A DNA stretch of 64,000 nt from Patescibacteria group bacterium (GTDB lineage Bacteria; Patescibacteriota; Minisyncoccia; Moranbacterales; UBA1568): positions 1,060-65,059 of the forward strand of contig JBBTWT010000007.1 in NCBI GenBank assembly GCA_038078615.1. The letters are read 5' to 3'. Under the pieces are notes generated by a model, which made no database searches, was not told the origin of the DNA, and saw only the letters and a list, made by a program, of their open reading frames with translations. Below, in pieces: positions 2,867-61,516 of this stretch; the first letter of the stretch is position 1; each line of letters opens with the position of its first letter. Both the position numbers and the translations under genes were made by a program.

Positions 2867-3001
2867 AGCATGGTTTTTGGAGCGCCCGATCAGCAAAAAC
2901 TTTTCAGAGGAGACACTCGTCCGCCCAGCGGCGGACTCACTTCTGAAACTTTTTTGATCCGCCCCGTGAGCACGGGGCGGCACCATGCTCAAAAAATTTT
3001 C
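2867..3001. repeat. Composite hairpin element between the nrdD C-fragment and nrdG (T-run/A-run bracketed GC hairpins)
   Basis: Outer inverted repeat is AGCATGGT (2867-2874) with ACCATGCT (2982-2989). Inner hairpins are GTCCGCC-cagc-GGCGGAC (2919-2936) and CCGCCCCG-tgagca-CGGGGCGG (2959-2980). The right half is colinear with 33749-33830. Confidence 0.7.
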
Positions 3002-3074
3002 AAGCCTCTCTGAAATGTTTTTGCGACAGGCGCTTGCCGGTAGCGGAAGCTTGGAGAAGCTCAACGTCACTCAT

Positions 3075-5383: not shown

Positions 5384-5483
5384 ACCTGATTTTTCTTGCG
5401 TACGCGGAGAAACCTCCCCAGTCCCTCTGTACACATTTTTCCACGACCGTGGAGAAATGTGTACAAATATAAAATGACGCGTG

Positions 5484-5498: not shown

Positions 5499-6332
5499 AT
5501 GAGGAAGAAATTTTTATACGGTATCATTTTGATTATCGGTGCGATGGTCGCAGTCGCGTGGGCGAACACTTTTCTGGTTGATGAAAATTTGGATACTGCA
5601 AAAACCGCAGAGCGTTTGATGCAAGAGACAAATATCCAAACAGAAGCTCTATCTGAAGAGAAAAAAGTACCGGAAGAAAGCGAAGGAGCCAAGGAAAATG
5701 AGCCGGTGGTGCCTGTGCCGGAACCGATCGTAGAAGCGCCGAAAGGGAGCCTCATTGAGGATGTTCCGTTTACCGTGCAGGCACCATCCGGACAGTGGGG
5801 GGATCCGGTGTTTCAGAACGGCTGCGAAGAGGCCTCGCTCGTTATGGCGGCTTATTGGATATCCGGCAAACCGCTCACGCCCGCTCTCGCGGAAAAGGAG
5901 ATGCAGGCTCTGGCGCGTTATGAAGAAAACTGGCTGGGGCATTCGGTAGATACGTCGATTGAAGATATGGGAGTGCTGCTCGAAGCGAACTACGGCATCG
6001 CATCAAGCGTGGAGCATACCGATGATGAGACACTCGCTCGCATCCGGGAGGCGCTTAGCGAGGGAGCGATCGTCATCGTGCCGGCGGACGGCAGAAAGCT
6101 CCGCAACCCGCATTTCACCCAGCCAGGACCGCCGCGGCATATGCTCGTCGTCATCGGCTATGATGCGGAAACCAAAGAGTTCATCACCCATGACCCGGGG
6201 ACAAAGCGCGGAGAGCGCCATCGGTACCGAGAACAGGTACTTTTCGAGGCTATCCGCGATTATCCGACCGGCGATCATCTGCCATTTCCCGAAGAAGAGC
6301 ACAAGACGATGGTCATTATCGGAAAATCGTGA
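5499..6332 (+). CDS. Membrane-anchored or secreted papain-like (peptidase C39-like) domain protein
   Basis: N-terminal TM segment LYGIILIIGAMVAVAW. FQNGCEEASLVMAAYW (candidate Cys) and RHMLVVIGYD (candidate His) are typical of the C39_2-like fold. The start is set at ATG 5499 because the -10 element overlaps the longer ORF. Confidence 0.6.
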   Translation: MRKKFLYGIILIIGAMVAVAWANTFLVDENLDTAKTAERLMQETNIQTEALSEEKKVPEESEGAKENEPVVPVPEPIVEAPKGSLIEDVPFTVQAPSGQWGDPVFQNGCEEASLVMAAYWISGKPLTPALAEKEMQALARYEENWLGHSVDTSIEDMGVLLEANYGIASSVEHTDDETLARIREALSEGAIVIVPADGRKLRNPHFTQPGPPRHMLVVIGYDAETKEFITHDPGTKRGERHRYREQVLFEAIRDYPTGDHLPFPEEEHKTMVIIGKS

Positions 6333-6364
6333 TATAATGAGGGTGTAACCAGTAATATAAATGT

Positions 6365-6700
6365 ATGGGGCTTTTTTTTCCATCAAAGAAACCAGCAATG
6401 CCATTCTCGTCAAAACCGGGAGTTTCTTCAGGTTTGAAAGGTTTGAACACAAGAGGAGTTATCACATCGAGTGAATTCAAGCGTAAAATCACGCCGGCTT
6501 TGACAAGGGCATTTGGCAGGACGAAAGGCGCGAATATAGAGAATATGTTGATAGGGGATACGAATCACAGCGGCTACACGCGCAGTATGACTGGGCGAGA
6601 AGCGACTGAAACTTTGAAACATTTGGGGAAAAACAGCAGAGACGACCTCTCGAATAAAGAGATCGAAAAGCTGAAGGGCATAATCAGCTCGCAATTATAA
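6365..6700 (+). CDS. Hypothetical small protein
   Basis: 111-aa ORF in an otherwise empty interval. No recognisable motif. Confidence 0.4.
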   Translation: MGLFFPSKKPAMPFSSKPGVSSGLKGLNTRGVITSSEFKRKITPALTRAFGRTKGANIENMLIGDTNHSGYTRSMTGREATETLKHLGKNSRDDLSNKEIEKLKGIISSQL

Positions 6701-8776: not shown

Positions 8777-8848
8777 ACAGAGCCTTGATATTTTCGCAGT
8801 ATCACATAACTGACGGTCGTCATTTATGTGATACGTCCGCAGTAGCAG

Positions 8849-8913: not shown

Positions 8914-9624
8914 ATGAATTTTTTCATCGCTATCGAGCAGTTCGTCAGGACGTACGCTACGGAGGTTCCTCTCACGTGGTTCGTGTTCGTCGGCTCTTTT
9001 TTCGAGGAAGTCGTGAGCCCGATCCCATCCGCGCTCATCATGGGGACGGCCGGATCGCTCGCGCTGGTGCAGGGGAGCACGCTCTGGTATCTCGTCTGGC
9101 TGGCGCTCATCGGCAATGTCGGCAAGACGCTCGGCGCCTGGCTGTATTATCTGATCGGCGACAAGCTGGAGGATCTGCTCGTCAGGCCTTTGACAAAATA
9201 TTTCGGCGTGAAGCATGAGGAGATAGAGAACATCGGCAAGCGGTTTACGGGGCATCATCTCAAGGACGGCGGCGTCGTGTTCCTGCTGCGCGTGCTGCCG
9301 TTCGTTCCGGCACTGCCGGTATCCCTCGCCGCCGGCATCATCAAGATGGACGTGCGCGTGTATCTGCTCGCCACGTACGCGGGCAATTTTTTCAAAGACA
9401 TTTTCTATCTCTATGTCGGTTATGTCGGACTCGCCAAGCTGCATACCCTGTGGCGCGCGATAGAACCGGTGAAGTTCGGCGTCGATATACTGGTCGCCAT
9501 CGGCATCGTCATCTTCCTTGTTTTCCTGTATGTGCATCGGGGCACGGGCCAGCGTTTCCTGCGGTATTCCGACGGCCGCCTGCGCGCGGCGCTCGCACGC
9601 CTGTTTCGCAAGCGTGATTCGTAA
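8914..9624 (+). CDS. DedA / SNARE-associated family membrane protein
   Basis: FVGSFFEEVVSPIPSALIMGTAG motif and multiple TM segments. Confidence 0.8.
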   Translation: MNFFIAIEQFVRTYATEVPLTWFVFVGSFFEEVVSPIPSALIMGTAGSLALVQGSTLWYLVWLALIGNVGKTLGAWLYYLIGDKLEDLLVRPLTKYFGVKHEEIENIGKRFTGHHLKDGGVVFLLRVLPFVPALPVSLAAGIIKMDVRVYLLATYAGNFFKDIFYLYVGYVGLAKLHTLWRAIEPVKFGVDILVAIGIVIFLVFLYVHRGTGQRFLRYSDGRLRAALARLFRKRDS

Positions 9625-9642: not shown

Positions 9643-11697
9643 ATGCCGGTATTCCGTCTCCAATCACCCTATCAGCCGGCTGGCGATCAGCCTCAGGCGA
9701 TCGTGTCTCTGGTGCGCGGATTGCGCGAGGGCAAGCGTTCCCAGACATTGCTCGGCGTGACCGGATCCGGCAAGACCTTCACGATGGCCAATGTCATCGC
9801 GCAGATGGATAAGCCGGCGCTCGTCATCGCGCACAACAAGACGCTCGCGGCGCAGCTCGCGCAGGAATATCAGGAATTTTTTCCCGATCACGCCGTGCAT
9901 TATTTCGTCTCGTATTACGACTACTATCAGCCGGAAGCCTATATGCCGACGACGGATACGTATATCGAGAAAGACGCGCAGATCAATGCGGAGATCGATC
10001 GTCTGCGGCACGCCTCCACGCAGTCGCTCCTGACGCGCCGCGACGTGATCATCGTCGCTTCCGTCTCGTGCATCTACGGGTTGGGCAGTCCTGCGGAATA
10101 TGAGAAGGAGAATATGCGTCTCGAGACCGGTATGCCGTGCTCGCGGACGGAGCTCCTCCACCGGCTCGTATCCATCTTCTTCGAGCGTACCAATGCCGAT
10201 CTGTCTCCCGGGCAATTCCGGAGCATCGGCAACCGCATCGAGATCATGCCGATCTCGGAGAAATTCATCTACCTGCTGGAAATTATCGGCGGCCGACTGG
10301 GGAGCATCACGAAGATCGATCCGGTATCGCAGAAGATCCTCGATACTCCGACGACTATCTTTCTTTTTCCGACGAAGCACTTCATCACGGACAAGGATCA
10401 GAAAGATTTCGCGATACAGTCCATCCGTCTCGAGCTCGCAGCACGATTGCAGGAGCTCGAGGCCGAGGGGAAAATTCTCGAGGTGGAGCGGCTCAAGCGG
10501 CGCACGAATTATGACCTGGCGATGATGCAGGAGATCGGCTATTGCAGCGGCATCGAGAACTATTCACGCCATCTGTCCGGCAAGGAGCCTGGCGAGCCGC
10601 CGGAGACGCTGCTCTCATATTTCCCCCGCCGTCGTAAAAGCTCTGGCGGGCAGGCGCACACTGATGTTTGGGAGCCTGATTTTCTAACAATTATAGATGA
10701 GTCGCACGTGACTTTGCCGCAGCTCCGCGGGATGTACGCCGGCGATCAGGCGCGCAAGAAAACGCTCGTCGAGTACGGCTTCCGCCTGCCCTCCGCGCTC
10801 GATAACCGGCCGCTCCGCTCCGAGGAATTCATGGAGCGGGTAGGACAGATGGTGTTCACGTCCGCGACGCCGGCGGACTATGAACGCGAGACAAGCGGGC
10901 AGATCGTGGAACAGGTGATCCGTCCGACCGGTCTCATCGACCCGGAAGTGGCGGTGCTGCCGATTCATGAGACAAAAGAGTATCCTGGACAAATTCAGGA
11001 TTTTATCGCGCAGACTGAAGAAGAGGTGAAAAAAGGCGGGCGCGTGATCGCGACGACCTTGACAAAAAAGATGGCGGAGGACTTGAGTACGTATCTGAAA
11101 GAAAAGAACATCAAGTCCGAATACCTGCACAGCGATATCAAGACCATCGATCGCATCAAGATCCTGACCCGGTTCCGCAAGGGAGAGTTCGATTGTCTGG
11201 TGGGAGTGAATCTGCTCCGTGAGGGACTCGATCTTCCCGAGGTATCGTTCATCGGCATTCTCGATGCGGACAAGGAGGGATTTCTCCGATCGGAGACTTC
11301 TCTCATCCAGATCATCGGCCGGGCAGCGCGCAATGTGTCCGGCCGCGTCGTCTTGTATGCCGAACGCATTACCGGATCAATGGAGTATGCTCTCAGCGAG
11401 ACGAATCGGCGCAGGAAGCTCCAGATGGCGCACAATAAGCTGCACGGCATCACGCCGGCTACGATCAAGAAGACGATCCACGACATCACGGAAGCCTTGG
11501 AAAGCGAGCATGACAAGGCGGTGCGCGCCAACATCGGCCTGGACCGGGAGATATTCGCCAAGAACCCCGAGAAGCTCATCAGGCTGAAGGAAAAAGAGAT
11601 GCGGGAAGCGGTGAAGGCGCTGGACTTTGAAACGGCGGCGATCCTCCGCGACGAACTCGCCATACTGAGGGGAAAAACGGACAAGATGTTGGGATGA
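9643..11697 (+). CDS. uvrB: Excinuclease ABC subunit B
   Basis: GVTGSGKTFTMA, DESHVTLPQ, YGFRLPSALDNRPL, LREGLDLPEVS and the C-terminal UVR motif. Carries a 16-aa insertion at 10627-10674. Confidence 0.95.
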   Translation: MPVFRLQSPYQPAGDQPQAIVSLVRGLREGKRSQTLLGVTGSGKTFTMANVIAQMDKPALVIAHNKTLAAQLAQEYQEFFPDHAVHYFVSYYDYYQPEAYMPTTDTYIEKDAQINAEIDRLRHASTQSLLTRRDVIIVASVSCIYGLGSPAEYEKENMRLETGMPCSRTELLHRLVSIFFERTNADLSPGQFRSIGNRIEIMPISEKFIYLLEIIGGRLGSITKIDPVSQKILDTPTTIFLFPTKHFITDKDQKDFAIQSIRLELAARLQELEAEGKILEVERLKRRTNYDLAMMQEIGYCSGIENYSRHLSGKEPGEPPETLLSYFPRRRKSSGGQAHTDVWEPDFLTIIDESHVTLPQLRGMYAGDQARKKTLVEYGFRLPSALDNRPLRSEEFMERVGQMVFTSATPADYERETSGQIVEQVIRPTGLIDPEVAVLPIHETKEYPGQIQDFIAQTEEEVKKGGRVIATTLTKKMAEDLSTYLKEKNIKSEYLHSDIKTIDRIKILTRFRKGEFDCLVGVNLLREGLDLPEVSFIGILDADKEGFLRSETSLIQIIGRAARNVSGRVVLYAERITGSMEYALSETNRRRKLQMAHNKLHGITPATIKKTIHDITEALESEHDKAVRANIGLDREIFAKNPEKLIRLKEKEMREAVKALDFETAAILRDELAILRGKTDKMLG

Positions 11698-15947: not shown

Positions 15948-16646
15948 ATGACAGAGAACATCCGTGAGCGTTTTATAGTTACCGCAGACGATTACGGCAT
16001 CCGCCAGACAGCGGAGCCGATTTTGCGCTTGGCGCACGAGGGGAAGATCGATCGCGTGGCGGTGCTGATCCACTATGTCTCCGCCGAGCAGGCGGAAGCG
16101 CTCAAGGCGACGGGAGTGAAGATCGACCTGCATCTGGAACTGATCGGGCTTCTGAAAAGCGGGGAGAAGATGCATGAGAGCGTTCTCGTGCGGAGCGTCA
16201 ATTTCATATTCCGCCGTATCGCCGGGCTGGCGACCGCGAAGAAAGTCGAGCAGGAATGGAGAGACCAGATCGTGCGCTTCCGCGATATCTTCGGCCGTCT
16301 GCCCGACGGGCTCAATTCCCATGAACATCTGCACTGTTTCCCGCCGTTTTTCAGGGTGTTCACGAAACTGGCGGAAGAATACCGCATATCGTATATCCGT
16401 TTCGGGAAGAAAGGCATGCTCACCGGCCTGCATGGGGCGTTCATCGGCGAGATTCTCGCTTTCTTCTGGAAGCGGACGCATCCCGCCTATGTCAAGACGG
16501 CGCTCGCGACATCCGATTATCTCGTGAGCCTGGATTGGCTCGCGGATTTCAAGTCTTTCAGCGAACGGCTGCCCTCCGGCAGTATCGAGCTGGTCGTGCA
16601 TCTGGAGCGCGAGGAGGATTATCGGATCATACTCGAGTATTTCTGA
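15948..16646 (+). CDS. ChbG/HpnK (YdjC-like) carbohydrate deacetylase family protein
   Basis: [15 protein letters not shown] and LNSHEHLH match the YdjC-family metal-site pattern. Confidence 0.7.
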
Positions 16647-16667
16647 CGGATCTCCCGTTTTTTTGTC

Positions 16668-16696
16668 TTGATATGCCTGCCTTTCGATGGTATACT
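16668..16696 (+). promoter_or_regulatory. Promoter for the first uvrA paralog
   Basis: TTGATA (16668-16673), 17-nt spacer, TGgTATACT (16688-16696). Confidence 0.55.
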
Positions 16697-16717
16697 GCCT
16701 TTCCTATATTTTCGCAT

Positions 16718-19318
<2,601 letters not shown>

Positions 19319-22245: not shown

Positions 22246-25044
22246 ATGCCAGAGAAAAAGCCGATGATCGAGATTCGCGGCGCGCGGGTCAACAACCTGA
22301 AGAACGTGGACGTCGATATCCCTCGTGATGCTTTGGTGGTGGTGACCGGCTTGTCCGGTTCGGGCAAATCCTCATTAGCTTTCGATACTCTTTTCGCGGA
22401 AGCGAATCGGCGCTATGTCGAGTCGCTTTCTTCGTATGCGCGCAATTTTCTCGACGGATTCGACAAGCCGGACGTCGACGCGATCCACAACCTTTCGCCC
22501 GCCATCTCCATCGACCAGAAGAGCGTGTCGAGGAGCCCGCGTTCGACGGTCGGGACGATGACGGAGATCTATGATTACCTGCGTATCCTGTTCGCCAAGC
22601 TCGGGATTCCGCATTGTCCATCGTGCGGCAAGCGTCTCACAAGAAAGAGCGTGCGCGAGATACTCGAAGAGCTCCTCCTCCTGCCCGACAAGACGCCGCT
22701 CGCATTCATCGCGTATGGCAAGGCGCTCGCCGACAAGACCGAACGCGAGGCGCTCTCACTCATCAATGCCTGGGGATACGTACGGGTCCTGTTTCACGGG
22801 GAGCTCTCGCCGATCGCCGAAGCGATAGGACGCGCGTCCGCGACGGAAATCTCGGATATCGGCGTGGTCGTCGACCGTCTCGAGATCGACCTGTCCCGTC
22901 CCGACAAGGAGCGTATCCTCGATTCGCTCCAGACCGCGTTCCGCGTCGGCCAGGGGACGCTCACGCTCCGCATCAATGGTACCGGTGAAGAACGTATCTA
23001 CAACGAGGAATACCGCTGTGAAGAATGCCATATCGGGCTGCCGGAGTTCACGCCGAGCTGCTTTTCCTTCAACAGTCCCGAGGGCGCGTGCGAGAAGTGC
23101 GCGGGCCTTGGCGTGACGCTCGAATTCGATCCGGAACTCGTCATCCCCAACAAGAACCTGTCGCTCGCCGAAGGGGCGATCCGTCCGTGGAGCAAGATGA
23201 ACAGCGACCGCCACAGCGGCAACGGGCCGATGCAGTGGCTGCGCGACGCGAGCCGGCGGCACAAATTCTCGCTCGATATTCCGGTGAAGAAGCTCGCCGG
23301 TAAGCATTTCTCCCTCATACTGCACGGGGAAGGCGGCACGGAGCAGGATGCCTTTCCCGGCATCATCGCGCTTCTGGAGAAGAAATACCGCGAGACGAAA
23401 TCGGATCATCTGCGTACGGACATCGAGGCGTATATGCTGACCAAGCTCTGCCCTCTCTGCGAGGGGAAGCGCCTGAAGGCGGCATCGCTCGCCGTGAAGA
23501 TAGAGGGACTTTCTATCGATGATCTCGTGAAGCAGAGCGTCGATATGTTCCTGGAGAGGATGAAGCCGCTGCGGGAAAAATGCCTGAAGACGGGCGAGAA
23601 GAAGATGATCGATCCCTTGTTCCGCGAGATGGAGATGCGGCTCTCCGCCGTGGAAAAAGTGGGACTCGGATATCTCGAGCTCTCGCGCGGCGCCGATACG
23701 CTGTCCGGAGGAGAGGCGCAGCGTATCCGCCTGTCAGTGCAGATGAAATCTGGGCTTTCCGGCATCATCTATGTCCTCGACGAGCCGTCGATCGGGCTGC
23801 ACAGCCGCGATACGGAACGCCTGATCAACGCGCTCGAGGATCTGCGGAAAGCGAACAATTCTCTCGTGATCGTCGAGCATGACGTGGCGATCATGCGCCG
23901 GGCGGACTATATCATCGATCTGGGTCCGGGCGCCGGCAGCGAGGGCGGCGAGATCATCTTCGCGGGCACGCCGGACAAGCTGATGCGCTCGAAGCTCCTG
24001 ACCGGCGAATACCTCTCCGGCAAACGCAGCATATCCGAGAAGAAGAAGGCGCGTCGTCTGAGCGAAGAGGCGATCACTGTTTTCGGCGCGACGGAACACA
24101 ATCTGAAGAATGTCGACGTGAAGATCCCGCTCGGGATGCTCGTGGCGGTTTCCGGCGTCTCGGGATCGGGCAAATCGAGCCTGGTGCATGACATCCTGTC
24201 CCGGGCGCTGTCGAAATATTTCTATCATGCCAAGGCCGAGCCGGGCGCGCACAGGAAGATCGAGGGGATCTCGAATATAGACAAGGTGATCGCCGTGACG
24301 CAGGATCCGATCGGACGGACGCCGCGTTCGAACGCGGCGACGTATACCGGCATCTTCAGCCTGATCCGCGACCTGTTCGCGGCGACGACGGAAGCCGAGC
24401 GCGAGAAATATTCCGCCAGTCATTTCAGCTTCAATATGCGCGGCGGCCGCTGCGAGGCATGCCAGGGCGGCGGATTGAAGAAGATCGAGATGTATCTCCT
24501 GCCGGATGTCTACGTACCGTGCGAAGTCTGTCAGGGGACGAGATACAACGCGAAGACGCTCTCGATCGAATATCGCGGAATGAATATCGCGGCCGTGCTC
24601 CGCATGACGGTCACGGAAGCGCGCCGCTTCTTCCTGGATCAGCCGATGATCGAAGAGAAGCTGCGCGTGCTCGAGGAAGTCGGTCTCGGATATCTGGTAC
24701 TCGGACAGAGCGCGACCAACCTCTCCGGAGGAGAGGCGCAGCGTATCAAGCTCGCGACAGAACTGGCACGAAAATCGACCGGCAAGACGCTCTATATCCT
24801 CGACGAGCCGACGATCGGCCTGCATTTCGAGGATGTGCGGCGCCTGCTCGAGGTGCTCGAAGCGCTGACGGACAAAGGCAACAGCGTGCTCGTCGTGGAG
24901 CACAATCTCGATGTCATCCGCTCGGCGGATTGGGTGCTGGAGCTCGGTCCGGACGGCGGCGCCAAGGGCGGGGAGCTCATCTTCTCCGGACCGCCGGACA
25001 AATTGAAAAACTGCAAGCGTTCATTCACGGCGAAATATCTATAA
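22246..25044 (+). CDS. uvrA: Excinuclease ABC subunit A (full-length type)
   Basis: [20 protein letters not shown] twice, [11 protein letters not shown], Zn modules, and an insertion-domain-length segment between CAGLG and CPLCEGKRL. Confidence 0.95.
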
Positions 25045-25084
25045 TTTTTAAAAGAGGGTTTTTTGTCTTAGAATCGAAAGCATC

Positions 25085-25149
25085 CCGGAAGTTTTCAGAT
25101 GAACCGTGCCGAAGAGGTTTCGCCACATGGTTCCCTAAAAAACTTCCGG
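25085..25149. repeat. Rod-like hairpin element, short copy (core shared with 47539-47655)
   Basis: CCGGAAGTTTT ... AAAACTTCCGG 11-bp outer stem. The inner 39-40 nt AGATGAACCGTGCCGAAGAGGTTTCGCCACATGGTTCCCT differs at 2 positions from 47561-47600. Confidence 0.85.
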
Positions 25150-25182
25150 AATCCTTTTGACACTGCGCTACTATCACAACAT

Positions 25183-26103
25183 ATGTCCTATCTTCTGGGA
25201 AAAAATATAGTGGTGACGGTGACGTATTATGACGTGTTCGATATGCCGCTCACGGTTCTCGAGATATGGAAGCATCTGATGGCGCAGGACTCCGGAGACG
25301 GGCATGGGGAGCCGTGTACGCTCGGCGATGTCGCCAGGTTCCTGGCAGCGGGGACTCTTGACGCGAAAATCGGGGGGAAAAACGGATTCTATTTCCTGCG
25401 CGGACGGGAGGATCTCGTGGCGCAGCGTATCCGGGCGGAGAAGCTTTCCGTCGCGAAGCTCAAACGGATGCGGCGTCTGGCGCGGCTCCTCGCGTATGTC
25501 CCGTATCTGCGGATGCTCGGCGCCACGGGAAGCCTCGCCATGAAGCATGGCGAACGGGAAAGCGACTGGGATATGTTCGTCGTCCTGCGCTCGGGCAAGA
25601 TCTGGACCGGACGGACGCTTCTGACCGGGTTCCTCCATCTCATAGGCAAGCGGCGGCATGGCGACCGGGTGCGGGATCGCGCCTGTCTCAATTATTTCGT
25701 CACGGACGACAATCTGGAAATCGGGACCAAGGACATGTTTTCCGCGCATGAGTACCGTTTCTTCATCCCGCTGCTCAACTTCAGGCTGTTCCAGGTATTC
25801 GAGCTGAAGAATCGCTGGATACGGGACTATCGCTCCAATTTCGCACTGACGACGCTGCCGAGCCTGTGGACCGTACCGGAGAGCCTGTGGGCGCGGCGTA
25901 TGCAGGGCGCGCTGGAAAGGGTTCTCGGGTTTCTCGATATCGAACGGTGGCTCGCGTCCTGGCAGAAGGAGAAGATCCGCCGTAACCCGAAAACGGCCCT
26001 GGAGGGAAGCCTGATCGAAGCGCATGATCGCGCACTGATTTTCCTGCCGCATCCGCAGGGACCGCGCGTCTTTGAGAAATTCAAGGAGCGCCTGAGCGCC
26101 TGA
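25183..26103 (+). CDS. Nucleotidyltransferase-fold (Pol-beta-like) domain protein, hypothetical
   Basis: GATGSLAMKHGERESDWDMFVV resembles the GS..(n)..D.D NTase motif. Start moved to ATG 25183 because 25099-25149 is the repeat element. Confidence 0.55.
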   Translation: MSYLLGKNIVVTVTYYDVFDMPLTVLEIWKHLMAQDSGDGHGEPCTLGDVARFLAAGTLDAKIGGKNGFYFLRGREDLVAQRIRAEKLSVAKLKRMRRLARLLAYVPYLRMLGATGSLAMKHGERESDWDMFVVLRSGKIWTGRTLLTGFLHLIGKRRHGDRVRDRACLNYFVTDDNLEIGTKDMFSAHEYRFFIPLLNFRLFQVFELKNRWIRDYRSNFALTTLPSLWTVPESLWARRMQGALERVLGFLDIERWLASWQKEKIRRNPKTALEGSLIEAHDRALIFLPHPQGPRVFEKFKERLSA

Positions 26104-33661: not shown

Positions 33662-33750
33662 CGTTGCCAACTTTGTTTCGTAGCAAGTTTCCCGACCGCA
33701 AGCAACCTTCCCGAGAGTCGCTCCTTCGCCCCGGCGGCGAATCCGCTTAT

Positions 33751-33827
33751 GAACTTTTTTCGATCCGTCCTGCTCAGGGCAGGCCGGCACCCCTCCGAAG
33801 GCGGGCAGGCATGCTCGAAAAAACTTC
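33751..33827. repeat. T-run/A-run bracketed GC hairpin element (family of 2944-3001)
   Basis: GAACTTTTTTCGA (33751-33763) pairs with TCGAAAAAACTTC (33815-33827) around GC hairpins. Colinear with GAAACTTTTTTGATCCGCCCC...CATGCTCAAAAAATTTTC at 2944-3001. Confidence 0.75.
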
Positions 33828-33914
33828 AACTCTCCCGGGAAGATTCTTGCGGCGGGAAACTCTCTCTGTGAGAAATTGCTAAAAAATATGAAGGACTATT
33901 TTCGTGGGTTGAGA

Positions 33915-36247: not shown

Positions 36248-36283
36248 ACCTTACTTTTTATGCAATTGCATAAAAAGTAAGGT
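36248..36283. repeat. Perfect AT-rich palindrome, copy 1 of 2
   Basis: ac-CTTACTTTTTATGCAATTGCATAAAAAGTAAG-gt. The identical 32-nt core recurs at 61482-61513. Confidence 0.95.
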
Positions 36284-40637: not shown

Positions 40638-40780
40638 GAATTTTCAATTTTTAGTTTTCAATTTTCAAACAATGATACGATGATCCAATTTTCGAAAGCT
40701 TTCCGGTTCCGCAAGGCACATTTGAAAATTAGGTCATTGGAAATTCATTAGAAATTGAAAATTGAAAATTGGAAATTGAC
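40638..40780. repeat. Inverted arrays of heptanucleotide repeats, (TTTTCAA)n and (GAAAATT)n, between mraZ and rsmH
   Basis: Left arm 40641-40668: TTTTCAA TTTTTAG TTTTCAA TTTTCAA. Right arm 40750-40780: GAAATT GAAAATT GAAAATT GGAAATT GAC. The arms are mutually complementary. Confidence 0.9.
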
Positions 40781-41747: not shown

Positions 41748-41935
41748 ACGGCAGCAACCGCCGCCAGATCGACAAAAACAAAAACAAAAAACAATCGTAT
41801 GCAGGAACGACGCCATCACGTCAGAATGATGTCTCCCGGGGGACACAGGCACGGTCTCGAGCCCGTTCGCAACGCTTTGCCAGCCCGAAAAGCTACGCTT
41901 AACGTTGCTGGCGGGCGTAGCAATGCGGGCAGGCT
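41748..41935 (+). repeat. Leader-ATG-two-hairpin cassette, copy B (homologous to 2521-2700)
   Basis: ACGGCAGCAAC, (ACAAAA)n...AAAAACAATCG, ATG 41799, then hairpins 41874-41893 and 41893-41920. Compensatory differences relative to copy A. Confidence 0.75.
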
Positions 41936-42218
41936 CGCGGGCTCGGTGCACGTGTTCGTGCTGATTGTTTTTCTGATCGCGTTCGTGGCGGGCGGAGGTT
42001 ATCTGTATTCCGTCAATCGTAGCGCGGTGCAGGGATATCATATGCGGACGCTGGAGAAGGAGATCGACAAACTCAAGCAGAATAACGCGGAGCTCAGGAT
42101 CGCCGAGGCGGATCTGCGGTCGCTCTATCGCATCGAGACCGCGGAAGAAGAGCTCGGCATGCAGAAGCTCGACACTATCATCTATCTCGAGGAACATGGA
42201 CCGATAGCTCTGCGGTAG
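41799..42218 (+). CDS. ftsL: Cell division protein FtsL-like (N-terminus encoded by the cassette)
   Basis: TM segment VFVLIVFLIAFVAGGGYLY followed by coiled-coil LEKEIDKLKQNNAELRIAEADL. Lies between rsmH and ftsI. The true start could be later (ATG 41826/41829 or GTG 41947). Confidence 0.6.
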   Translation: MQERRHHVRMMSPGGHRHGLEPVRNALPARKATLNVAGGRSNAGRLAGSVHVFVLIVFLIAFVAGGGYLYSVNRSAVQGYHMRTLEKEIDKLKQNNAELRIAEADLRSLYRIETAEEELGMQKLDTIIYLEEHGPIALR

Positions 42219-44028: not shown

Positions 44029-45347
44029 TTATGAATAAGAAAAAAATACTCGAAAAAATCCTGCGTTTTATGGCGCGCGCGGTACTGAAAAAATACCAGC
44101 CGCTCATCGTCGGTATCACCGGATCAGTCGGGAAGAGCTTGACGAAGGAGGCGGTAGCGCTCGTCCTGTCCCAGGCGTATGCGGTGCGCAAAGCGGAGGG
44201 GAATTACAACAATGAGATCGGCATCCCGCTCACGATTATCGGCGCTGCGAGCGGAGGAACGTCACTACTGCGCTGGATCGGGGTATTTTTCAGATGGCTC
44301 TGGCTGCTGCTCGTTCCCGTGCGCTATCCGGAGATACTCGTGCTCGAGATGGGTATCGATCGTCCGGGAGATATGGATTATCTGCTCGATTTCGTGCCTC
44401 TCCGGATCGGCGTGGCGACGCAGGTCTCATCGAGTCACATCGCGTTTTTCGGATCGATCGGGAACATCGCCAAAGAGAAAGGCCGGCTGATAGCGGCGCT
44501 TCCGGAAGACGGATTCGCGATCCTGAACGCCGATGATGCGCGCGTGCTCAAGATGAGGGAGAAGACGAAAGCGAAGATTATTACGTACGGCTTCGGCGAA
44601 GAAGCCGTACTGCGAGCTGATAACCTCGTGTCTCATCGCGAAGCAAAGCGCGTCGAGGGATTCAGTTTCAAATTGAATTATGACGGCAAGTCGATTCCGG
44701 TGCATCTGCCGAACATTGTCGCGGCATATCATATTTCCGCGGCGCTCGCGGCGGCGGCGGTCGGCGTGGCGTTTCGGATGAATCTCGTGGAAATAGCGTC
44801 AGCGCTGGAGAATTTCTCGCCGCTTCCCGGACGCATGCGTCTCTTGCCGGGCAGGGACGGGATGACACTGCTCGATGACACGTACAACGCATCGCCGGTT
44901 TCCGCGGAAGCCGCGCTCTCCGTCGTGAGGGAGCTCGTGGCGCCGCGCACAGTCGTCATCCTCGGCGATATGCTGGAGCTCGGCGCGGATGCGAAGCAGG
45001 AACATGCGGCGCTCGCGGATACGGTCATCGCTTCCGGCGCGCATATCGTCATGGCTGTCGGACAGCATATGAGGTCTCTCCACGCGGCGCTGCTCGCGGC
45101 AGGCTTCTCGCGCAAGCAGGCATTCTGGATGCCTGATCCGCTGGCTGCGGCCGATGCTCTGCGAGATATCGTCCGCACGGAGGATCTCATTCTCATCAAG
45201 GGATCACAGGGTATGCGTATGGAGAAAGTAACTGAAGCGCTGCTGGCAGATCCGAGCGAAGCAAAGACACTGTTATGTCGTCAGTCTGTCGAATGGCGGA
45301 ATCGTCTGTTTGTTCCGCCGGCTGAATGGACCAATGAAAAAGAATAA
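44025..45347 (+). CDS. murF: UDP-N-acetylmuramoyl-tripeptide--D-alanyl-D-alanine ligase
   Basis: GITGSVGKSLTKEA P-loop and the DDTYNASP motif. ATGA overlap with the ftsI stop. Confidence 0.85.
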   Translation: MIMNKKKILEKILRFMARAVLKKYQPLIVGITGSVGKSLTKEAVALVLSQAYAVRKAEGNYNNEIGIPLTIIGAASGGTSLLRWIGVFFRWLWLLLVPVRYPEILVLEMGIDRPGDMDYLLDFVPLRIGVATQVSSSHIAFFGSIGNIAKEKGRLIAALPEDGFAILNADDARVLKMREKTKAKIITYGFGEEAVLRADNLVSHREAKRVEGFSFKLNYDGKSIPVHLPNIVAAYHISAALAAAAVGVAFRMNLVEIASALENFSPLPGRMRLLPGRDGMTLLDDTYNASPVSAEAALSVVRELVAPRTVVILGDMLELGADAKQEHAALADTVIASGAHIVMAVGQHMRSLHAALLAAGFSRKQAFWMPDPLAAADALRDIVRTEDLILIKGSQGMRMEKVTEALLADPSEAKTLLCRQSVEWRNRLFVPPAEWTNEKE

Positions 45348-45463
45348 TGAATCGAGAATGAGGAATCGAGAATAAACAATAAGGCGAATGGCGAGCATTG
45401 CGATTTTCTTGCTTTTGATTTATTCTTGATGTATGATGCGCAATTCCTGATTCCTTTTCAGAT

Positions 45464-46979: not shown

Positions 46980-47534
46980 ATGAATGTCATCAAAACAGCC
47001 TTAGATGGAGTGATGATCATCGAGCCGGACGTATTCGCGGACGAGCGCGGGTTTTTTATGGAGGCGTTCGAGGAAAAACGGTATCAACGGGCATTGGGTC
47101 TGTCAGAACACTTCGTACAGGATAATCTATCACTGTCGAAAAAGGGTGTGCTGCGCGGCCTGCACTATCAAGCGCCGCCCTATGGACAGGGGAAACTCAT
47201 CTCCGTGCTCTCGGGTAGCGTGCTCGACGTGGCGGTGGATATCCGCCATGGTTCGCCGACGTTCGGCCAGCATACCACAATAGAACTTTCCGGCGAGAAT
47301 CATCGACAGTTGTTCGTGTCGGCGGGATTCGCGCACGGGTTCGTCGTGCTCTCCGACTCGGCGCTGTTCGCGTACAAATGCACCAACGTGTATTCGCAGG
47401 AGCATGATCGCAGCATCCTCTGGAACGATCCGGCACTCGGCATCGACTGGGGCATAGCCGATCCGATCGTCTCGGAGAAGGATCAGCGGCATCCGCTGCT
47501 TGCGGACATCCCGCAGGAATATCACTTTTCATGA
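46980..47534 (+). CDS. rfbC: dTDP-4-dehydrorhamnose 3,5-epimerase
   Basis: DERGFF.E, RGLHYQ, and the GFAHGF cupin pattern. Confidence 0.9.
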   Translation: MNVIKTALDGVMIIEPDVFADERGFFMEAFEEKRYQRALGLSEHFVQDNLSLSKKGVLRGLHYQAPPYGQGKLISVLSGSVLDVAVDIRHGSPTFGQHTTIELSGENHRQLFVSAGFAHGFVVLSDSALFAYKCTNVYSQEHDRSILWNDPALGIDWGIADPIVSEKDQRHPLLADIPQEYHFS

Positions 47535-47538
47535 TTAT

Positions 47539-47655
47539 AGAAAAGATTTCAAAAGTTTTTAGATGAACCGCGCCGAAGCGGTTTCGCCACATGGTTCCCT
47601 GCCCGAAGTGCTACATCGTGGCAGGCGGGCCTAAAAAACTTTTGAAATCTTTTCT
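47539..47655. repeat. Rod-like hairpin (MITE-like) element, long copy
   Basis: 23/24-bp terminal inverted repeats: AGAAAAGATTTCAAAAGTTTTTAG with CTAAAAAACTTTTGAAATCTTTTCT. The inner core is shared with 25098-25136. Carries an extra hairpin CTGCC..GGCAG. Confidence 0.9.
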
Positions 47656-47690: not shown

Positions 47691-48668
47691 ATGAAACTAT
47701 TAGTTACAGGCGGAGCCGGTTTCATCGGTTCCAACTTCATACATCATATCCTTACGGCATATCCGGAATATCAGGTGACCAATCTGGACGCCTTGACGTA
47801 CGCGGGGAATCTGGAAAATCTGAAAATATGGGAACATGATGCGCGCCACCGTTTCGTGAAGGGCGGCGTGACAGACAAGGAGCTCGTGGATGGTCTCGTC
47901 GCGGCGTGCGATATCGTGGTGCATTTCGCGGCGGAGTCCCACGTAGATCGCTCGATTATGGATCCGAGCGCTTTCGTGGATACCAATATCAGAGGAACGT
48001 ACGTGTTGCTTGAAGCGGCGCGCAAACACGGCAGGCGTTTCCATCATATCTCGACGGACGAGGTATTCGGTGCGCTCGGTCCGGATGATGCACCGTTTGA
48101 CGAGGAGACAGCGTATGACCCGCGTAGTCCCTACAGCGCGTCGAAAGCGGCGTCGGACCATCTGGCGCGCGCGTATTTCCATACCTATGGTCTGCCGGTC
48201 ACGATTTCCAACTGCTCCAACAATTATGGGCCATACCATCTGCCGGAGAAACTGATTCCGCTTGCAATCACGAATCTTATCGAAGGAAAGAAAGTGCCGG
48301 TCTATGGCGATGGTCTGCAGGTGCGTGACTGGCTCTACGTTGAGGATCATTGTAGGGCGATCGATCTCATCATCCATCAGGGGCAACTCGGCGAGACCTA
48401 CTGCGTCGGCGGGAACGGTGAGCGGGAGAATACCTGGATCGTGAAAAAACTGCTGGCAATGCTCGGCAAAGATGAGAGAATGATCGAATATGTGAAGGAT
48501 CGCCCCGGCCACGACCGTCGCTATGCCATCAATTTTTCAAAAATTCAGCAGGAGCTCGGCTGGCAGCCAACCGTGACTTTGGAAGAGGGTTTGCAAAAAA
48601 CGGTGAAGTGGTTCCAAGACAACAAATCCTGGTGGAAGAATGCCCGCCAGAAACGCTATCACGCCTAG
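47691..48668 (+). CDS. rfbB: dTDP-glucose 4,6-dehydratase
   Basis: VTGGAGFIGSNF, YSASKAASDHL, and the NYGPYHLPEKLIP motif. Confidence 0.95.
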   Translation: MKLLVTGGAGFIGSNFIHHILTAYPEYQVTNLDALTYAGNLENLKIWEHDARHRFVKGGVTDKELVDGLVAACDIVVHFAAESHVDRSIMDPSAFVDTNIRGTYVLLEAARKHGRRFHHISTDEVFGALGPDDAPFDEETAYDPRSPYSASKAASDHLARAYFHTYGLPVTISNCSNNYGPYHLPEKLIPLAITNLIEGKKVPVYGDGLQVRDWLYVEDHCRAIDLIIHQGQLGETYCVGGNGERENTWIVKKLLAMLGKDERMIEYVKDRPGHDRRYAINFSKIQQELGWQPTVTLEEGLQKTVKWFQDNKSWWKNARQKRYHA

Positions 48669-50080: not shown

Positions 50081-50149
50081 CATTCAGCGCGATGTTCTTC
50101 AGGAGGACGTTTGTGGGATGATCATCGTGTATATTGCTACATATCTACA

Positions 50150-50187
50150 CCTACACATCTATGTGCGACCGCACAGAGATGTGTAGG
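50150..50187. repeat. Palindromic repeat, copy 2 of 3
   Basis: CCTACACATCT-at-GTGCG-ac-CGCAC-ag-AGATGTGTAGG, ending 10 nt upstream of ATG 50198. Confidence 0.9.
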
Positions 50188-50197
50188 TCACAAAGGC

Positions 50198-50806
50198 ATG
50201 GAAGAAAAAACAAAAGCAACCAAACAAAATGGAATAACAAGGAAAATTCCCTATGGCCTTATTGGCAGGGTATTTCTAGGCTCCATAGCGGCAGTGGGGA
50301 TGGTGAGTCTCGCGGTGGCTGCACCGAACGCGATCCAGATAGCGAAGTTGTTTCAGGGACGCAGGCAGAGCTACTTTCGTCGCTATCAGGCTCCGTCGTA
50401 TGTGCGAAAAACCTTGAAAAGCCTGCATCGTCGTGGAATGGTGAGAATTTCAGAGCGGCAGGGCGAAGCGAAAGTGTATCTGACGGACAAGGGCAGGCGT
50501 GAGTTACTCAAATATAAACTCCTGGAAAAACGTTTGGAGAAGCGTCATTGGGATAAGAAATGGCACATCATCATATTTGACATTGAGGAGAAGCGTCGCT
50601 CGGCGCGCAATTGTATTCGGAAAGATATGCAATCATTTGGTTTCGCGAAACTTCAAGAAAGTGTCTGGGTGTATCCGTACGAATGTGAGGAAGCTATCAC
50701 GCTGCTGAAGACGCAGTACAAGATGGGGAAGGAACTCGTCTATATCGTTGCGGGAGACATCGAGAATGACGGATGGCTGCGGAAAAAATTCAAGCTGGAA
50801 AACTGA
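50198..50806 (+). CDS. PaaX-C / Cas2-like fold wHTH protein with N-terminal TM (putative regulator)
   Basis: TM segment, then LKSLHRRGMVRISERQGEAKVYLTDKGR (winged helix), then WDKKWHIIIFDIEEKRRSARNCIRKDMQSFGFAKLQESVWVYPY (PaaX C-domain / Cas2-like pattern). Confidence 0.6.
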   Translation: MEEKTKATKQNGITRKIPYGLIGRVFLGSIAAVGMVSLAVAAPNAIQIAKLFQGRRQSYFRRYQAPSYVRKTLKSLHRRGMVRISERQGEAKVYLTDKGRRELLKYKLLEKRLEKRHWDKKWHIIIFDIEEKRRSARNCIRKDMQSFGFAKLQESVWVYPYECEEAITLLKTQYKMGKELVYIVAGDIENDGWLRKKFKLEN

Positions 50807-50827
50807 AAATATATGTTATTCTTGTGC

Positions 50828-50863
50828 CTACACATCTATGTGCGGTCGCATATAGATGTGTAG
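50828..50863. repeat. Palindromic repeat, copy 3 of 3
   Basis: CTACACATCTATGTGCGGTCGCATATAGATGTGTAG, starting 22 nt after the stop of the PaaX-like gene. Confidence 0.9.
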
Positions 50864-61478: not shown

Positions 61479-61516
61479 AGTCTTACTTTTTATGCAATTG
61501 CATAAAAAGTAAGACT
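61479..61516. repeat. Perfect AT-rich palindrome, copy 2 of 2
   Basis: agt-CTTACTTTTTATGCAATTGCATAAAAAGTAAG-act. The flanks differ from copy 1 but are still self-complementary. Confidence 0.95.

Follow-up and report, generated by a model that had tools for sequence, protein, structure and literature searches.

A long hairpin occupies the spacer between rfbC (46980-47534) and rfbB (47691-48668) in the 64-kb window, the whole stretch of DNA analysed here. The products of the two genes are assigned by Pfam as a dTDP-4-dehydrorhamnose 3,5-epimerase and a protein of the dTDP-glucose 4,6-dehydratase type, respectively. CPR/Patescibacteria genomes are about 1 Mb in size and tightly packed, and they are considered to contain few repeats and little mobile DNA. 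The question raised by this locus is what kind of element such a hairpin represents: a dispersed repeat, a structured RNA motif, a site recognised at the level of DNA, a short coding sequence, or a transcription signal.

Two copies of one hairpin in the window

The hairpin between rfbC and rfbB, here called W2, spans 117 nt (window 47539-47655). Its Pfam-assigned neighbours and its RNA fold (-57.2 kcal/mol, z = -7.1, with 0 of 200 shuffled sequences equally stable) bear out a sequence-only reading of this DNA that had placed a hairpin element of this length in the spacer. The terminal inverted repeats proposed in that reading are also present: the outermost 22 nt on each side (47539-47560 and 47634-47655) are 100% complementary and are followed by one bulged A and two more pairs. 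The parts of W2 are:

47539..47562 (+): left arm, AGAAAAGATTTCAAAAGTTTTTAG, forming a perfect inverted repeat with 47634-47655
47561..47600 (+): conserved 40-nt apical core, AGATGAACCGCGCCGAAGCGGTTTCGCCACATGGTTCCCT, which recurs at 25097-25136 with 2 mismatches
47601..47632 (+): W2-specific, GC-rich nested insert of 32 nt, GCCCGAAGTGCTACATCGTGGCAGGCGGGCCT, missing in the orthologous L002 as well as in every other copy
47631..47655 (+): right arm, CTAAAAAACTTTTGAAATCTTTTCT, with one conserved bulged A, delimited by inverted-repeat, fold and pair-count evidence

The left arm is the same in the orthologous copy L002 and almost the same in a further copy, L003. The basic unit of the family to which these copies belong, designated F1, is 85-86 nt long, and W2 consists of an 85-nt unit plus the 32-nt insert. 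Placement of the insert is ambiguous by a repeated CCT. Folding predicts that the insert pairs with the 3' portion of the core, and a search for its source found no second occurrence within the window.

The second match to the 40-nt core, for which the chance expectation is 0, belongs to a hairpin of 85 nt with two mismatches (W1, 25075-25159). W1 lies between the gene for a UvrA paralogue (22246-25044) and a gene (25183-26103) for a 306-aa protein that is conserved but of unknown function; a type IV pilus cluster follows the latter gene. Its parts are:

25075..25098 (+): left arm, CGAAAGCATCCCGGAAGTTTTCAG, homologous to the W2 arm with compensated changes
25097..25136 (+): core, with 2 mismatches to the W2 core
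25135..25159 (+): right arm, CTAAAAAACTTCCGGAATCCTTTTG, delimited by the hairpin fold and pair count

The recurrence of the core with two differences had been recognised from the letters, although its start was placed at 25098 instead of 25097. Two other statements about this copy need correction. The second hairpin had been given as 65 nt long (25085-25149), short of its full 85 nt, and its closing stems had been called non-homologous to those of W2. In fact, the similarity between W1 and W2 spans 64 nt (25073-25136 versus 47537-47600) at 84%, and the arms derive from one sequence, their differences being compensated (CCCGGAAG/CTTCCGG versus TTCAAAAG/CTTTTGA). The accompanying remark that the stems keep their complementarity despite sequence change was sound, as compensatory substitutions are seen throughout the alignment of seven copies described below.

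The neighbourhood of W1 contains two UvrA paralogues encoded 3 kb apart (16535-19318 and 22246-25044), separated by uvrC, and uvrB (9643-11697) lies upstream. Two relatives, L014 and L019, have kept the same arrangement.

Copies, filled sites and empty sites

F1 comprises seven distinct copies at four intergenic loci in three to four related Moranbacteria MAGs: W1 and W2 in the window, L001-L004 in the Candidatus Moraniibacteriota MAG JBAQCV01, and L014 in GCA_040960315.1. When a 19-mer of the core was matched exactly against 185,579 species-representative genomes, four true copies were returned, every one in JBAQCV01, along with two chance matches within coding sequence. L002 is the orthologue of the rfbC-rfbB copy and L004 the orthologue of the copy between uvrA and the 306-aa gene; L001 and L003 occupy two further loci. 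L014, which was reached via the 306-aa protein (81% protein identity), is the uvrA-site orthologue in GCA_040960315.1. A fourth population is represented by a Logan contig (L018, 86% protein identity) that starts inside the right arm at the uvrA site. The window itself comes from a Patescibacteria/Moranbacteria MAG, and its sequence is also present in GCA_964365145.1. A search beyond the window with a core sequence, of the sort suggested at the outset, returns more than two copies, the others lying at further loci in a related MAG. The initial proposal of a MITE family with variable ends stands insofar as F1 is a family, whereas a target-site duplication and an autonomous partner were both sought at these loci and not found.

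A covariance model built from the seven copies (R1) scores each of them at 95-110 bits and finds no additional copy in the 64-kb window, with filters off too, or in about 250 kb of related loci. Copy number seems low, with two copies in 64 kb, at least four in JBAQCV01 and none in about 90 kb of related loci. JGI metagenome contigs yielded no F1 copy and chance matches only, two scans of IMG/VR viral contigs likewise yielded no copy and only chance or coding matches, and distant BLAST searches of phage and plasmid records returned just A/T-rich chance matches of 25-30 nt. No F1 match reaches gathering thresholds in Rfam, where only chance-level hairpin or miRNA-like matches appear up to E 10, and a search of the literature on such repeats in Patescibacteria found nothing. 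F1 is a previously undescribed family, confined to a narrow clade of uncultivated Candidatus Moranbacteria (CPR). Two further, independent Logan contigs, L012 (end 10598) and L013 (end 7891), stop at the same base within the F1 core (…GATGAACCGCGCCGAA), which fits a repeat or a polymorphism at that position. F1 is of practical concern as a cause of contig breaks, accounting for short-read assemblies that break at particular spacers.

All four loci are spacers between co-directional genes, and no gene recurs beside the copies. The core is in sense orientation between uvrA and the 306-aa gene and between rfbC and rfbB, and in antisense orientation between dprA and topA (L003) and between an ORF and a glycosyltransferase gene (L001). 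Since F1 occurs in both orientations relative to its flanking genes, a strand-specific cis-regulatory RNA or leader is unlikely.

Some of these sites are empty in relatives. The rfbC-rfbB spacer is just 10-14 nt long and devoid of F1 in the related genomes L065, L066 and L068/L069, and the dprA-topA spacer holds F1 only in JBAQCV01 (L003); L070, from the window's own genome, and L072 are both empty there. F1 is dispersed in intergenic spacers, in either orientation, and is present at filled sites and missing from empty ones among close relatives. The sequence-only reading had named empty sites in relatives and target-site duplications as points to look at. Empty sites exist, and structure is conserved in the filled copies; no target-site duplication or common target motif is recognisable at the four loci, where divergence of the flanks prevents an alignment of filled with empty sites. 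The empty sites could be deletions instead of pre-insertion states. Judged by neighbouring genes and proteins, the window is no more distant from the empty L065 than from the filled L002, so that separating gain from loss takes a proper tree. The young-looking copies W2, L002 and L003 have one master arm in common, GAAAAGATTTCAAAAGTTTTTAG, and L002 and L003 are 95% identical; the uvrA-site copy is widely shared, and its arms have drifted. F1 can serve as a marker for the history of strains and species in an uncultivated lineage.

A second repeat family, F2, is about 150 nt long and has a multi-stem fold with 14 covarying pairs and no match in Rfam. Its copies are:

2884-3032 (window): F2 copy in the nrdD-nrdG spacer
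33690-33858 (window): F2 copy
6117-6247 (+) (L014): F2 copy
6290-6437 (-) (L014): F2 copy
152-301 (L019): F2 copy
9290-9428 (L019): F2 copy

In L019, a relative at 75% identity, F2 occupies the exact site that is held by F1 in the window. The inner domains of F1 and F2 have a common layout of a T run, a GC-rich centre and an A run, and reciprocal covariance-model matches between the families are weak (E 0.03-0.5). The inner sequences do not exceed shuffled ones in similarity (z 0.2-2.2), so homology between the two families is not established and is not claimed here.

Several spacers are filled by long A/T-rich inverted repeats made of TTGAAAAT-like or GAATC-like units (window 40639-40779 and 45335-45460; L021 3087-3224), including the spacer between mraZ and mraW and that upstream of a TerC gene. 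In L021, another relative at 75%, such a repeat fills the site between uvrA and the 306-aa gene.

Fold and constraint

In the seven-copy alignment, the outer helix of F1 has 24 pairs, with 94.5% of cells paired and eight pairs changed on both sides. These values were reached by 0 of 500 shuffles, and slid registers fall to 38-62% paired. F1 folds as one long imperfect rod, and the earlier wording of a rod-like hairpin was apt, as the RNAalifold consensus is a single continuous rod. The rod begins with a basal helix of about 24 A/T-rich pairs that contains a conserved bulged A, and is capped by an apical part in which roughly 12 pairs close a 5-nt loop, G(C/A)G(G/A)U. According to RNAalifold, the apical pairing joins GAACCG with UGGUUC, then a single G-C, then CGAA with UUCG. 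Only four core positions vary among the seven copies, and all of them lie in the loop, lie in a bulge, or stay G-U in the RNAalifold structure. The bulged A and the T5/A6 blocks beside the core are invariant in all copies. The two strands fold with similar ease, as DNA and as RNA alike. A different inner hairpin, GAACCGC/GCGGTTT, with an apparent compensatory pair in L014 (C to T, G to A), proved to be a register error that gives U-G and C-A; as it is disrupted in four of the seven copies, it was dropped in favour of the continuous rod.

Conservation differs between the two parts of the rod. Without its insert, W2 is identical to L002 at 85 of 86 positions. Around it, identity falls to 76-81% in the adjoining DNA of rfbC and rfbB and to 61% in the downstream spacer. 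At the uvrA site, the window and L004 share 96% identity in the arms and 97% in the core, compared with 67-82% in the spacer flanks and 83-89% in coding DNA. Between W1 and L014, identity is 89% in the core, 62-68% in the arms, 27-50% in the flanks and 79-87% in coding DNA, and the L014 arms are fully paired despite their low identity to W1. As read from these alignments, the identities show that resident F1 copies are under constraint, which acts on sequence in the apical 40-45 nt and on pairing in the basal helix.

Constraint of this type could reflect a host-encoded structured RNA motif, either an mRNA processing or stability signal or a small RNA, that would not be mobile. An RNA-binding protein would then read the apical sequence, or that sequence would base-pair with a target, and the copies would have arisen via duplication and loss. 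Conservation of the core at or above the level of coding DNA, compensatory changes in the stem, and variable core positions that are structure-neutral are all consistent with this explanation. F1 is also probably transcribed, because all its sites lie between co-directional genes, and F2, with its covarying pairs, occupies comparable sites, among them the L019 site orthologous to that of W1. The occurrence of F1 in both orientations would, however, require that each strand functions or that half of the copies are inert. Among non-Watson-Crick pairs, G-U is not in excess over A-C, and so there is no strand-specific RNA signature; the core by itself is not unusually stable (z -1.3 to -2.0). Further points against an RNA motif are that presence and absence differ among close relatives, that no promoter-like or terminator-like signal belonging to F1 was found, and that Rfam gives no match even with lax filters. 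We regard a host RNA motif as an unlikely identity for F1.

A DNA-level site would not face the problem of orientation. In this alternative, a sequence-specific DNA protein, such as a recombinase, a replication/repair factor or a nucleoid protein, would bind F1 as a cruciform-prone sequence or as a single-strand hairpin. Extrusion would be helped by the A/T-rich arms, and orientation independence, the equal folding of both DNA strands, the equal tolerance of G-T and A-C mismatches, and the invariant bulged A and T5/A6 blocks next to the core all agree with recognition as DNA. On the other hand, neither a candidate partner protein nor a recurrent neighbour gene was found at the loci, the copy number and positions give no testable chromosomal pattern in 64 kb, and neither an origin nor a terminus is apparent from GC skew across the window. 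A site of this kind is, in our assessment, rather improbable.

Both cores in the window start with an ATG and can be read as MNRAE(A/E)VSPHGSL, a reading that had been noted and set aside as incidental. A small ORF, leader peptide or N-terminal extension of the downstream gene (MNRAEAVSPHGSL...) would be in keeping with the core ATG being in frame, and open into the downstream gene, in W1, L004 and L002. However, the frame meets an early stop in W2, L001 and L014, in L003 it runs only antisense through dprA, and two copies are antisense to their operon. The core substitutions are three non-synonymous to one synonymous, and element-free homologues start at the same MKLL.../MSYL... residues. A leader peptide or N-terminal extension was rejected on account of the variable stops, the antisense copies and the unchanged homologue starts; a coding role is extremely improbable, and the incidental status of the reading frame is upheld.

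Transcription signals were considered as well. The base of the stem, GAAAAG...CTTTTC, resembles the A-tract/U-tract flanks of an intrinsic (bidirectional) terminator, and TTGAAA, which occurs in most arms, would suit a promoter placed there. Consensus scans nevertheless found no terminator-like site at either window locus and no promoter-like site inside F1, and a G+C-rich stem followed by a T run, the pattern of an intrinsic terminator, is absent from both window loci. L014 has CTTGCCG where the U-rich end would be expected, and no copy has a -10-like hexamer at the right spacing. F1 also sits within the rfbC-rfbB pair, whose genes are separated by so few nucleotides (10-14) in relatives. A promoter or terminator identity was rejected, since the consensus scans found neither within F1, and is very improbable.

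F1 beside known repeat families

We favour, with moderate confidence, the reading of F1 as a non-autonomous, non-coding palindromic repeat family of the REPIN/CREE/MITE kind that is kept as a long rod hairpin. REPINs are REP doublets that form hairpins, are mobilised by RAYT tyrosine transposases (Y1), and number tens to hundreds of copies per genome; the RAYT gene is single-copy and flanked by the same REPs. F1 resembles them in being a single near-perfect, extragenic hairpin of similar size, its 85-86 nt comparing with the 89-bp hairpin of the described REPIN unit (PMC3337134). Like them, it also stays in place at orthologous sites within a lineage, while relatives differ at some of the sites. 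In contrast, REPINs conserve the terminal REPs and vary in the spacer, whereas F1 conserves the apical middle and varies in mid-arm. The F1 arms are not recognisable as short REP palindromes, copy number seems much lower, and there is no sequence similarity between the two.

CREE is an inverted repeat with a conserved directional core, length variants and RNase III binding, and in Neisseria its hairpin, when part of an mRNA, serves as a substrate of RNase III (PMC2649163). The inverted repeat enclosing a conserved directional core, typical of CREE (CREE/NEMIS), is likewise found in F1. The two also have in common discrete length variants produced by internal insertion or deletion, represented in F1 by the 32-nt insert of W2, and placement in either orientation in spacers between genes. 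CREE is, however, known only from Neisseria, with more than 100 copies per genome, 26-bp Correia repeats and a duplicated target; its long forms contain an IHF site, and its ends can create promoters (PMC2649163). The host of F1 is Moranbacteria, the CREE core ends CCGGTACGG/TCAGGACAA and the 26-bp Correia repeats are absent from all seven F1 copies, and neither CREE sequences nor the IHF site nor promoter-making ends are seen in F1.

Bacterial MITEs include RUP, BOX and ERIC (PMC2229807, PMC10969869). F1 shares with MITEs a small size, a lack of coding capacity, terminal inverted repeats, several dispersed intergenic copies, and structure. It differs from them in showing no target-site duplication at the four loci and in having ends that, in older copies, have drifted with compensation. 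In the window and the fetched loci, the arm sequence is confined to F1 itself, and no related insertion sequence with F1 ends was found there. F1 does not fit integron attC sites, which have R''(RYYYAAC)/R'(GTTRRRY) ends, a variable centre and cassette arrays beside an integrase: F1 ends in (C/A)GAAAAG and CTTTTC(G/T), its centre is conserved, and the window ORFs tested and the related loci show neither arrays nor an integrase. From these likenesses and differences, F1 works like REPIN and CREE but is a member of neither family.

If F1 is a palindromic repeat of this kind, new copies would arise rarely, via a trans-acting enzyme encoded elsewhere. Such an enzyme would recognise the folded element through the near-invariant apical module together with the conserved master arm. 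No transposase, integrase or HUH/Y1 protein is encoded among the approximately 35 window ORFs tested by Pfam or in the gene tables of the fetched loci, about 250 kb in all. Because copies sit inside apparent operons, F1 would be co-transcribed with its neighbours, and its 22-24 bp helix would be the kind of substrate that RNase III cuts or at which exonucleases stall. By analogy with CREE and REP, F1 could then punctuate mRNA processing and stability.

Several observations count against this reading. Besides the lack of a recognisable target-site duplication, of a transposase in the ORFs and loci covered and of a G-U excess, the low copy number, and empty sites that could be deletions, the best-conserved part of F1 is its middle, in contrast to the conserved ends of REPINs and MITEs, and resident copies are more conserved than a purely selfish relic would be. 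It is conceivable, though we hold it to be doubtful, that F1, perhaps with F2, represents a new class of functional folded nucleic-acid module whose apical sequence of about 45 nt is read by a dedicated protein. Such a module would be either a hairpin-transposon system without TIR/TSD logic or a domesticated RNA-level or DNA-level signal under selection. As a palindromic repeat, F1 is otherwise an ordinary kind of bacterial element, and its interest lies in its small-genome CPR host and in its clear constraint signature. It also offers a handle on finding whichever enzyme moves or reads the repeat.

The window and its relatives contain several other features. The nrdD gene seems split (352-2858), in that an ORF at 352-2469 corresponds to positions 2-530 of the Pfam NRDD model and an ORF at 2580-2858 to positions 531-562. 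The roughly 300 nt between these matches (about 2395-2700) have no Rfam intron match; the gap could be an intron-like insertion, or the gene could be frameshifted or assembly-affected. An 85-nt GC-rich direct repeat, 79% identical, is found in this gap region (2622-2706) and at 41859-41943, in a small ORF between mraW and ftsI, and may be a common peptide-coding segment or a repeat. A gene for bAvd, the accessory protein of diversity-generating retroelements, adjoins a 942-aa ORF in L072 (10775-11029, GCA_040960315.1) and is unrelated to F1.

Hairpins of 37 nt, CCTACACATCTATGTGCGACCGCACAGAGATGTGTAGG, occur at 2470-2506, 5428-5464, 50150-50186 and 50827-50863, and possibly at 8799-8834. Each consists of two CACAT...ATGTG palindromes, and two of the copies bracket a PaaX-like gene (50111-50806); these hairpins look like operator sites or short terminator-like hairpins. 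Finally, a perfect loop-less palindrome of 36-38 bp (…CTTACTTTTTATGCAA followed by TTGCATAAAAAGTAAG…) occurs twice, at 36248-36283 and 61479-61516, and is more likely a protein-binding site than an RNA hairpin.
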